Sequence record: OZ346228.1
DNA: 64,000 bases
Direction: 5' to 3' (one strand)
From: a phage
The notes below the pieces were generated by a model. That model made no database searches. It had not been told where the DNA came from and worked only from the letters and a program-made list of their open reading frames with translations. The position numbers and the translations under genes were made by a program. Below are positions 24,692-30,201 of the stretch, piece by piece; position 1 is the first letter of the stretch; each line of letters starts with the position of its first letter.

Positions 24692-24720
24692 GTAAAAAGA
24701 GGGGCCCAAGCCCCCTCTTT
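24692..24720 (-). terminator. rho-independent terminator (- strand)
   Basis: On - strand AAGAGGGGGC-TTGG-GCCCCCTCTT then TTTTTAC. Confidence 0.5.
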
Positions 24721-27122: not shown

Positions 27123-27518
27123 TTACTGAAACAGTGCGGATAAATTACCTTCTGGTGGGAACTTATCTGCCAAAAACGGTGTTAGCACAGTAGCCTTCTG
27201 AAGATCTGGGGTCCACTCGTTGTTCAGAACATCCCAGTAGTACGCAATGTTGCTGTGTGGGTGCCGCATTACGAACTTTTTCCCTTCGTAGTCGTCTGAA
27301 ACCTCTACAGAAGAAATAACAACAGAATCTTCAAGGGTTTCTTCATAGAAAGATCCCCCTTCAAATTTCCAACGAGATGCAAGAGCCCCTGCCTTGAACG
27401 CTGCAGATAACGGACTGTCGGCAAGAACATACATTTCTTGCACTCTGTCGCTGCGATCTTTGCTTCTTACGTTGTATACAGTATCTGAGCTATACTCAAC
27501 ACGGTATAGGCTTACCAT
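27123..27518 (-). CDS. hypothetical protein, paralog of 29330-29728
   Basis: KFVMRHPHSNIAYYWDVLNNEWTP versus KVFVIVHPDSRVKHYWNSRTKTWTP. Confidence 0.55.
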   Translation of the reverse strand: MVSLYRVEYSSDTVYNVRSKDRSDRVQEMYVLADSPLSAAFKAGALASRWKFEGGSFYEETLEDSVVISSVEVSDDYEGKKFVMRHPHSNIAYYWDVLNNEWTPDLQKATVLTPFLADKFPPEGNLSALFQ

Positions 27519-28118: not shown

Positions 28119-28209
28119 ATAGTATCACCTCTGGTAAGAGATTGGGATTCCTTTCCCACAAATAATTACAAATCTTCCTTATCGAGGAAGTATGCTAATC
28201 CAAGCAGGA

Positions 28210-28479
28210 TTATTCCTCTACAATCTCATACACATCAGGAGTTACAATCAACTCTTCTCCGTTACCCGGTGCAACAAACACCACCAAACCTTCAGGTGTG
28301 TGCTTTTTAGCCATCTCGATAACATCTTCTCGCAGAGCTGGCTCCATCAGATCAAAACCTTCACCCAGGGCATCACGAACCACCTTCATATAGTCAACTG
28401 GTTGTGCTTCAACAATCATGCCTTCAACCAGTCCACAGTTTTTGTCTGCCAGCTCAGTTTTGAATAATTTAATTTTCAT
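28210..28479 (-). CDS. hypothetical protein
   Basis: RBS GAGGAG; C-terminus ..VYEIVEE. Confidence 0.5.
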   Translation of the reverse strand: MKIKLFKTELADKNCGLVEGMIVEAQPVDYMKVVRDALGEGFDLMEPALREDVIEMAKKHTPEGLVVFVAPGNGEELIVTPDVYEIVEE

Positions 28480-28505: not shown

Positions 28506-28607
28506 TTAATAGCCGTAACCTAACACATTAACTACAACTGCGATTGCAAACATAATTTCAAAGCATGCAATCTCTACATTTGGGACTAATTTCTTAATCA
28601 CACCCAT
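28506..28607 (-). CDS. small hydrophobic peptide (33 aa, tentative)
   Basis: RBS GAGGTG; MGVIKKLVPNVEIACFEIMFAIAVVVNVLGYGY. Confidence 0.3.
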   Translation of the reverse strand: MGVIKKLVPNVEIACFEIMFAIAVVVNVLGYGY

Positions 28608-28616
28608 TGTAGCACC

Positions 28617-28937
28617 TCATTCTCCAAAGTCAATCTTTACTTTGCCTTTCCCCTTACCTTTCTTTCCACCGCATTTAGCCAGCTGACGTGCTGCAACATC
28701 TACCATACGGTCAGTTGCCTCGTAAGCATCACTGCCTTTAGCCTTGGCAATAACTTCTTTTCCAGAATTGTCAAAAATGAACGCCATAACTTCCTGGTGA
28801 TCATTTTCAACTTTTACACTTACACGTGCATAGTTAACAGAGGGATGTAAACGCTCCAGCTTGGACATTTTGCGGGAAATAAAAGATACCATACCTTCTG
28901 TGATTTCTACATTGTTGCCAGTGATTTCAATTTGCAT
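28617..28937 (-). CDS. hpf: ribosome hibernation promoting factor (HPF/YfiA family)
   Basis: MQIEITGNNVEITEG..KLE..VSVKVE..ARQLAK tracks E. coli HPF MQLNITGNNVEITEA..KLE..VVLKVE..ARQLTK (from memory). Confidence 0.8.
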   Translation of the reverse strand: MQIEITGNNVEITEGMVSFISRKMSKLERLHPSVNYARVSVKVENDHQEVMAFIFDNSGKEVIAKAKGSDAYEATDRMVDVAARQLAKCGGKKGKGKGKVKIDFGE

Positions 28938-29021
28938 AACGTGTTCCTTTTAAGGAAGAGGGAATAACTATCTCTCTTTGAAAACAATGATACTAAATCT
29001 GAAGCGTTGTGTCAACAGTTT

Positions 29022-29329: not shown

Positions 29330-29728
29330 TCAGTTTAGCTTTTCTTCAACAACCCCATAACTTGGGGCAGAGTCAAGAGCTTTCTGGTTTAAAAGTGGCG
29401 TAGCAGAATCTGCAAACGGTGTCCAAGTTTTTGTTCTGGAATTCCAGTAATGCTTCACTCTGGAATCTGGATGCACTATAACAAAAACTTTTTCACTTGT
29501 CAACACATTAATTTCTTCTACACCCTTGCTGATAATTTCTCCGTCATAGCCCCCAGTCTGGTATCCTTCGTACCAGGTTCTTGCATAGGCATAGCCAGCC
29601 TGCCAGCATGCAGCCTCCTCCGAGGTGGAGACTACGTAGAAGTCTTTCTCAAATTCCGGAATACGCCCTTGCTTTACGCTCCAAGCTCCGCGAATTTTCA
29701 TTGTTACTTTGAAAAGCTTGTTCTTCAT
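29330..29728 (-). CDS. hypothetical protein, paralog of 27123-27518
   Basis: Shared HP(D/H)S..YW..(W/T)TP motif. Confidence 0.55.
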   Translation of the reverse strand: MKNKLFKVTMKIRGAWSVKQGRIPEFEKDFYVVSTSEEAACWQAGYAYARTWYEGYQTGGYDGEIISKGVEEINVLTSEKVFVIVHPDSRVKHYWNSRTKTWTPFADSATPLLNQKALDSAPSYGVVEEKLN

Positions 29729-29729
29729 A

Positions 29730-29984
29730 CTACCGCTCTACAATCTCTACGTCTGTTCCTACACCGAAGGCATAGTAATGTTCTTCCCCAAAGTAATACT
29801 TGGGGACACCCGCTTTGATCAGATCTAACCCGCGAATAAATACCACACCGTGTGATACAGTGGAATGCTTCTGACGCACAGGATCGTTGTCAGGCAACCA
29901 TTCAAAGTACACCGCAGGTACAACCTTTCCCTTCAGGAAGGATTGTCCCAAGTAGACGTTAGAATCAAGAATTTTAACCTTCAT
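29730..29984 (-). CDS. small protein, MKVK..EIVE paralog family
   Basis: MKVKILDSNVYLGQ..GKV..RGLDLIKAG..DVEIVER. Confidence 0.55.
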   Translation of the reverse strand: MKVKILDSNVYLGQSFLKGKVVPAVYFEWLPDNDPVRQKHSTVSHGVVFIRGLDLIKAGVPKYYFGEEHYYAFGVGTDVEIVER

Positions 29985-30201
29985 TCTCGTCCTCCACTAT
30001 CTCTGCATCCTCACCAAGGGCAAAGTTGTAGGTCCACTGGCTGTCAAAGCAGTCTTGAGATGCACCAGCGGCAATAAGATCTGCACCTTTTATTTTTAAA
30101 AGGTCAGGATAATCTTCGTTAGGGATAGCGGTAAACACTTTCCCCACTAAGGGCTCCTGACCAATATAGAAGCTTGAATCTAAAACTTTAACTTTCATCA
30201 A
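29974..30201 (-). CDS. small protein, MKVK..EIVE paralog family
   Basis: MMKVKVLDSSFYIGQ..GKV..KGADLIAAG..AEIVED; tandem to previous. Confidence 0.55.
   Translation of the reverse strand: MMKVKVLDSSFYIGQEPLVGKVFTAIPNEDYPDLLKIKGADLIAAGASQDCFDSQWTYNFALGEDAEIVEDENEG

Follow-up and report, generated by a model that had tools for sequence, protein, structure and literature searches.

The hpf locus and its distribution among phages

The stretch of DNA analysed here (64,000 nt, referred to as the window) carries an hpf-like gene preceded by a putative promoter and a ribosome-binding site and followed by two further small genes. The features of the locus, by position in the window, are as follows.

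28174..28190, minus strand: terminator-like hairpin and T-run after the 89-aa gene, from a pattern scan only
28210..28479, minus strand: acidic 89-aa protein, the next gene downstream (phrog_11868)
28506..28607, minus strand: hydrophobic mini-ORF of 33 aa (MGVIKKLVPNVEIACFEIMFAIAVVVNVLGYGY), beginning 9 nt past the hpf stop (phrog_15151, E=4e-26)
28617..28937, minus strand: hpf-like coding sequence, 106 aa plus stop, ATG to TGA, equivalent of rV5 ORF144 (ABI79209)
28620..28670, minus strand: Lys/Gly-rich tail, residues 90-106 (GGKKGKGKGKVKIDFGE) after C89, predicted to be disordered
28671..28937, minus strand: HPF/YfiA core domain, residues 1-89, predicted as beta1-alpha1-beta2-beta3-beta4-alpha2 (AlphaFold2, Foldseek)
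28945..28950, minus strand: Shine-Dalgarno sequence AAAGGA, 7 nt upstream of the ATG, read from the sequence and conserved in the alignment
28987..29015, minus strand: predicted sigma-70-type promoter, TTGACA-17 nt-TATCAT, an 11/12 match in a consensus scan, about 50 bp upstream of the ATG

The surrounding 4 kb was 99.5% identical at the nucleotide level to Escherichia phage nomo, which places the window among the rV5-like Vequintavirus phages and confirms the phage origin assumed in the preliminary description. A nucleotide search of the phage collection matched these 4 kb in 121 phage records, nearly all of them rV5-like Vequintavirus, and at least 80% of the query was covered in 116 rV5-like records. 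At the protein level, a tblastn search of the phage collection matched HPF in 119 records. All but one of these matches (118 of 119) were at least 93% identical; the remaining one, at 42% identity, was a Salmonella enterica genome contig. The gene is annotated in more than 100 Vequintavirus records, and its database labels include “sigma 54 modulation factor”, “hpf”, “ribosome hibernation factor” and “RaiA”. Four records (OR062525, OR062530, MT884009 and MT884011) carry the label “ATP-dependent protease La type I”, an evident error given that the product is a protein of 105 aa with an S30AE domain. Furthermore, 18 “Campylobacter phage” records (MG0656xx, host C. jejuni) are about 96% nucleotide-identical to the E. 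coli rV5-like phages in this region. A C. jejuni host for these records is implausible, which suggests mislabelling or a co-isolated coliphage.

The rV5 record (DQ832317) annotates a “Sigma70-type promoter; P144” at the position homologous to the promoter found in our scan. Four Vequintavirus genomes share identical −35 and −10 hexamers, and the sequence around the −35 element was also kept in a sister lineage described below. Such a near-consensus sigma-70 promoter suggests that hpf is expressed early. Literature searches for Vequintavirus transcriptomes or for later functional work on phage HPF returned nothing relevant. The Shine-Dalgarno sequence of the mini-ORF, GAGGTG, overlaps the hpf stop codon, and the 33-aa product is annotated in rV5, FV3, nomo and others. 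The mini-ORF is probably co-transcribed with hpf and may encode a translationally coupled small membrane peptide. The hairpin after the 89-aa gene is a possible end of the P144 transcription unit.

The 89-aa gene itself had no Pfam match and no similarity to the HPF open reading frame, and the idea of a second HPF next door was rejected on these grounds. This gene is labelled “sigma 54 modulation factor” in APCEc02_082, nomo_102, nom and others (L012 857-1064; L001 7211-7480), while the true hpf of APCEc02 is entered as a “hypothetical protein”; the label is off by one gene there and was then propagated to nomo, nom and others. Around hpf, the minus strand carries a long run of small genes whose products are mostly acidic. 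Between 25.8 and 30.2 kb these are strongly acidic, with pI values of 4.0-4.7, and HPF, with a pI of 9.0, is the sole clearly basic one. A paralogous pair of 131 and 132 aa flanks hpf (27123-27518 and 29330-29728, minus strand; both phrog_7379, 28% identical, E=5e-10), and a second pair of 84 and 75 aa lies at 29730-29984 and 29974-30201 on the same strand (both phrog_5009, 41% identical). Further away, a GC-rich palindrome (GGGGGCTTGGGCCCC) at 24700-24715 scores as a terminator on both strands and coincides with a switch in GC skew and coding strand, with plus-strand genes before about 24 kb and minus-strand genes after it; it probably serves as a bidirectional terminator for the convergent transcription blocks on either side. 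A search of the 64,000-nt window for tRNA genes and Rfam RNAs found none.

The phage protein is a short-form HPF

In a BLASTP comparison with E. coli HPF, the phage protein showed 40 identities over 92 positions (43%) with one gap (E=1e-21). The similarity is densest at the N-terminus, where residues 1-14 (MQIEITGNNVEITE) share 12 of 14 positions with the E. coli sequence (MQLNITGNNVEITE) and the first 30 residues share 17, in keeping with the earlier remark that the protein follows E. coli HPF there almost position by position. Both family profiles scored above their curated cut-offs: Pfam PF02482 (Ribosomal_S30AE) with 56.7 bits against 23.7 (E=4e-15), and NCBIfam TIGR00741 (HPF/YfiA family) with 56.8 bits against 40.9 (E=2.5e-15). 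The best solved relatives in the PDB were structures of E. coli HPF (2RQL, 4V8H and 6H4N, E about 4e-15). The more specific NCBIfam equivalogs stayed under their cut-offs, the gammaproteobacterial short HPF model NF007780 at 65.2 bits (cut-off 125) and the RaiA/YfiA model NF007654 at 22.8 bits (cut-off 158). The phage protein is thus closer to HPF than to RaiA.

The AlphaFold2 model had a pLDDT of 85, with block means of 83-96 across residues 1-90, and places the elements at E2-8, H14-30, E34-44, E47-56, E61-68 and H71-90 (order E-H-E-E-E-H). A Foldseek search of the PDB with this model returned 38 matches at E<=1e-3, all of them HPF, YfiA or pY proteins, with V. cholerae HPF (4HEI, rmsd 1.1 Å) and E. 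coli HPF (2RQL, 6H4N) at the top. The 106-aa protein contains no C-terminal dimerisation domain of the long HPF type, as Pfam reported only PF02482 and a sub-threshold RRM_9 match. The open reading frame therefore genuinely belongs to the HPF/YfiA family; it encodes a phage version of short-form HPF that is extended by 17 residues. With E. coli short HPF (YhbH) it shares the fold and the lack of that dimerisation domain.

The extension is the Gly/Lys-rich tail that the preliminary description had pointed out: 6 Lys and 6 Gly among its 17 residues, a net charge of +4 and a pLDDT of about 46-52. Within the genus the tail is kept except for small indels and frameshifts in the GK tract, and in the sister lineage another basic sequence, SKSKGIDKRTAKWDY, takes its place. 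The corresponding segment of E. coli HPF is the short sequence KDKLKQH. The phage protein has the same fold, and presumably the same binding site, as E. coli YfiA/RaiA (protein Y). Both have tails longer than that of HPF; the match to the YfiA model is, as given above, very weak. The E. coli YfiA tail is acidic overall, whereas the phage tail is polycationic. The tail of YfiA heads toward the RMF site and has been tied to 70S-type hibernation, not to 100S formation (bioRxiv 10.1101/2025.10.07.680626).

The tail is encoded by a purine-rich GGn/AAr tract (28620-28670, minus strand), and the YN3 version is 2 residues shorter. Frameshifted tails ending in GRKKGKGERQSKD occur in APCEc02 and P0003 (L012 401-706; P0003). 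The indels and frameshifts of this tract could be sequencing errors or real slippage.

An old gene under purifying selection

For the analysis of selection, ten Vequintavirus alleles were compared. The pooled pN/pS within the genus was 0.069, and the pairwise dN/dS values ranged from 0.03 to 0.11 at dS up to 0.6, with the tail included. A 103-aa homolog, P0004, which is 64% identical, occupies the syntenic position in metagenomic contigs of 124-137 kb that are themselves 73-82% identical to vequintaviruses over just about 30% of the region. Relative to this sister lineage dS was saturated, and dN in the domain was 0.24.

The nearest cellular cluster representative in an exhaustive HMMER search was 44% identical, and a word-indexed protein search returned phage copies only. 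A blastn comparison of hpf with 5,426 complete E. coli genomes found no nucleotide similarity, and a recent capture from E. coli was rejected on this basis. The GC content of the gene (41.1%) is close to that of the window (42.7%). Taken together, the low dN/dS, the copy in the sister lineage, the 44% identity of the best cellular match and the agreement in GC indicate an old, ameliorated acquisition under strong constraint.

These data also dispose of the reading that the gene is a non-functional passenger, a relic of a captured host gene, which we regard as extremely improbable: the negative ribosome-association result discussed below and the rare frameshifted tails of APCEc02 and P0003 would agree with it, but the low pN/pS, a reading frame that is intact in 119 phage records apart from tail shortening or frameshifts in a few (e.g. 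APCEc02, Murica), a sister-lineage copy kept past synonymous saturation and the conserved promoter and Shine-Dalgarno sequence effectively refute it.

The rV5 gene (ORF144, ABI79209) is the same gene, with 97% protein identity, the same position, the P144 promoter and the downstream mini-ORF. The window allele differs from it by an extra Asn and by H22R and A34V. The extra Asn separates two allele classes, GNNVEITE (the window, as in E. coli HPF) and GN-VEITE (rV5-type alleles and the sister lineage), through a one-codon indel at residue 8 (about 28914-28916, minus strand). In some species the residue at this position touches A964, as His8 does in E. hormaechei.

Loss of conserved ribosome contacts

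The residues through which HPF touches the ribosome have been described in some detail. In Gram-negative HPF, K26 and Q29 contact C1496/G1497, H55 and E60 contact uS9, and T53 and H62 contact m2G966; K80, R83, K87, K89 and K91 of helix alpha2 are “strictly conserved” and contact 16S rRNA (bioRxiv 10.1101/2025.10.07.680626). R33, K93 and H95 of E. coli HPF touch the E-site tRNA and G693 (Beckert et al.). In S. aureus, the K84/R87 pair has been reported to be critical for dimerisation, and abolishing binding needed mutations on both helices (PMC4889938). E. coli K80 aligns with S. aureus K84.

An alignment was built of the phage proteins, E. coli HPF, YfiA and the 89 short homologs that the exhaustive search had yielded, and eight conserved basic positions in helices alpha1 and alpha2 (E. 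coli R17, K23, K26, K80, R83, K87, K89 and K91) were scored in it. Five of the eight are kept in the window phage (K23, K26, R84 for E. coli R83, K88 for K87 and K92 for K91) and four in the sister lineage. R29 and E61 (E. coli E60) are kept as well, as are G7, T13, D70, Y72 and D76. Three of the eight basic positions are lost in the phage, as R17V, K80V (V81 in the phage numbering) and K89G (G90). The other substitutions relative to E. coli HPF are M51 for D51, F53 for T53, F55 for H55 and S33 for R33, and there is a one-residue insertion (D56). The C-terminal K93/H95 contacts have no counterpart, since KDKLKQH is replaced by the unrelated Lys/Gly tail.

At least six of the eight basic positions were kept in 82 of the 89 cellular homologs (92%), and just 3 of the 89 had no basic residue at both 80 and 89. 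The three basic losses and the substitutions at D51, T53, H55 and R33 occur in both phage lineages. Because substitutions common to two lineages that diverged past synonymous saturation are unlikely to be decay, we take them to be a stable derived feature of the phage clade. From the alignment, then, the loss of three of the eight conserved basic rRNA contacts is a derived change. Together with the absence of the protein from ribosomes washed in 0.5 M NH4Cl, the changes R17V, K80V and K89G suggest weakened binding.

The published experiments on rV5 HPF

The existence of hpf in phages is already known from GenBank and from two papers in Nature Communications (Mizuno 2019, Mathieu 2020). The rV5 GenBank record DQ832317 lists ORF144 as “sigma 54 modulation factor”. 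Mizuno et al. (2019) gave rV5 ABI79209 and five relatives as phage HPFs, placed the phage HPFs among gammaproteobacterial sequences and proposed that they might prevent dimer formation via competition with cellular homologs (PMC6375957). Mathieu et al. (2020) noted the gene in five gut phages of the rV5-like type, “as already described” (PMC6969025). What we add is modest: the evidence of strong purifying selection, the syntenic copy at 64% identity in the sister lineage, the derived loss of basic contacts and a reappraisal of the published negative result.

The one published functional test is that of Mizuno et al. (2019), in which E. coli NM522 expressed rV5 HPF from a pBAD24 construct. The cells were collected at an OD600 of 1, and their ribosomes were sedimented through 0.5 M NH4Cl. 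Mass spectrometry detected rV5 HPF in the crude extract but not in the 70S or 100S fractions, and expression left the 100S peak and the gradient profile of the late-exponential cells unchanged (PMC6375957). Because the protein was not found in the 70S and 100S fractions and the gradient was unchanged, a true loss of ribosome binding is possible. The cells withstood arabinose induction of rV5 HPF that was kept up without a break from the pre-culture until OD 1 (PMC6375957), which argues against a potent translation shut-off factor.

We examined the protein lists that accompany these experiments. For ribosomes from the strain that expressed viral HPF, Supplementary Data 4 gives 71 proteins in all; viral HPF is not among them, and neither are host HPF, RMF and YfiA. 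Host RMF, HPF and YfiA do occur in the crude extract from this strain (Supplementary Data 5). Furthermore, host HPF and RMF are absent from all three washed-ribosome preparations (Supplementary Data 2-5). Thus host HPF was in the cells and yet was equally off the washed ribosomes, and the published negative result cannot distinguish a lack of binding from loss in the wash or from an unsuitable growth phase. The caveats of washing and growth phase were raised by Mizuno et al. (2019) themselves (PMC6375957). The negative result is weak, as it comes with no working internal positive control. The published 70S/100S profiling of the rV5 protein, an experiment that the preliminary description had also proposed, showed neither ribosome association nor an effect on the profiles. 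This is the outcome that the description had named as refuting its claim, but for the reasons just given it does not settle the matter. Of the two parts of the preliminary description's main claim, the identification as HPF stands on profiles and fold, and the suggested shut-down of host translation or parking of ribosomes has found no support so far.

Host YfiA behaved differently from the other host factors. Washed ribosomes gave 1 YfiA spectrum in the strain expressing bS21 and 6 in the one expressing bL12, but none in the viral-HPF strain, a pattern that Mizuno et al. (2019) did not discuss. In single, unquantified shotgun MS lists this is a hint at most, and it fits displacement of YfiA by viral HPF.

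Proposed role on the ribosome and alternative readings

The reading that we favor, to which we give about an even chance, is that the phage protein docks on the 30S subunit or the 70S ribosome at the HPF/YfiA site in a salt-labile manner and acts mainly by competition with host HPF and YfiA, not by promoting 100S formation. In this scheme, an ancestral gene would have been captured long ago from a gammaproteobacterial host and kept by the phage as a working gene, and host RNA polymerase would transcribe it early from its own near-consensus sigma-70 promoter. On vacant ribosomes, the core domain would sit in the head-body cleft of the 30S subunit and cover the A and P sites, the place where cellular HPF and YfiA bind and keep out tRNA and mRNA. 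This docking would be weaker and more salt-labile than that of the host factors owing to the loss of three conserved basic residues that contact rRNA, and the flexible polylysine tail probably adds non-specific RNA affinity along the mRNA path. The phage HPF would then compete with host HPF/YfiA, and indirectly with RMF, for idle ribosomes, which would stay as protected and quickly reusable 70S particles, neither locked in 100S dimers nor globally shut off.

A salt-labile competitor of this kind fits the half of the contact surface that is retained, the strong selection, the lack of toxicity, the unchanged 100S peak and the YfiA hint. An early host-type promoter also fits a competitor, since such a promoter would be counterproductive for a potent ribosome silencer.

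A more pointed version, which we consider unlikely, is that the protein works against hibernation as a decoy. With weak binding and fast release, it would displace YfiA and HPF, and it would block RMF-driven 100S formation with a polylysine tail positioned at the mRNA-exit/RMF side. If this were true, ribosomes would stay free for phage translation when the host is starved or has been driven into dormancy by a defence system, and a captured host hibernation factor would have been turned against hibernation. RMF induction has been reported during DRT2 defence (PMC13434031).

It is about as improbable that the HPF fold has been neofunctionalised off the ribosome and that, in analogy to Acb4, its target might now be some other RNA (a tRNA or an mRNA) or a nucleotide signal. 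In favor of such a change of function, the viral HPF was not detected on washed ribosomes, and several conserved contact residues were lost in both phage lineages despite strong purifying selection. There is also a precedent, as the Acb4 monomer of SPO1 resembles V. cholerae HPF 4HEI (PMC11722364), the same structure that was the top structural match here. Acb4, an anti-CBASS sponge (PF13876, the family accession given in PMC11722364), is likewise a small viral alpha/beta RNA-binding-like fold resembling HPF. However, Acb4 has a five-element dsRBD topology and forms a tetramer, whereas the phage HPF has the six-element HPF topology and nothing that points to oligomerisation or nucleotide binding. 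The phage protein had no PF13876 match even at E<=1, and an Acb4-like sponge, which thus has no sequence support, was kept as a low-probability rival. In addition, homology to HPF at the sequence level (43%) and the retention of five of the eight basic contacts and of the N-terminal strand argue against a role off the ribosome, and the absence from washed ribosomes is uninformative because host HPF was equally missing.

The third alternative, in line with the preliminary description, is a canonical hibernation or shut-off factor with tight, host-like binding that forms 100S particles with host RMF or blocks initiation globally and in this way stops host translation or parks ribosomes. It appears to us distinctly unlikely. 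The homology and fold of the protein are clearly those of HPF, its score with the HPF equivalog exceeds that with the RaiA equivalog (65 against 23 bits), and the basic residues of alpha1 and alpha2 are partly retained. On the other hand, expression in E. coli left the 100S peak unchanged with the protein found in neither 70S nor 100S fractions (PMC6375957), and induction from pre-culture to OD 1 was tolerated. The residue equivalent to K84 of the S. aureus dimerisation pair (K80) is lost, the C-terminal K93/H95 contacts are replaced, and an early sigma-70 promoter would be expected to silence ribosomes just when the phage needs them. A search of the phage records with an RMF query sequence, run with no positive control and therefore weak evidence, detected no homolog, so that any 100S formation would depend on host RMF.

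Relation to other phage-encoded ribosome factors

Phage-encoded translation factors are a recognised class of auxiliary genes, and rV5 HPF is the best-known cultivated example. A phage HPF could protect, park or liberate host ribosomes, and any such role bears on how large virulent phages infect non-growing cells. It is also of relevance to therapy in which rV5-like phages are directed at E. coli O157 and at multidrug-resistant strains.

Cronobacter phage GAP32 and Escherichia phage PBECO4, also large myoviruses, likewise encode Ribosomal_S30AE proteins. In a fold search of viral structures, PBECO4, GAP32 and three further BFVD entries had HPF-fold proteins at 19-25% identity. The GAP32 and PBECO4 proteins, within this range of identity, belong to phrog_8990, in contrast to phrog_12469 for the protein described here, and were not recovered by tblastn. 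These genes are most likely independent acquisitions, and this implies that large myoviruses have taken up hibernation factors repeatedly and independently.
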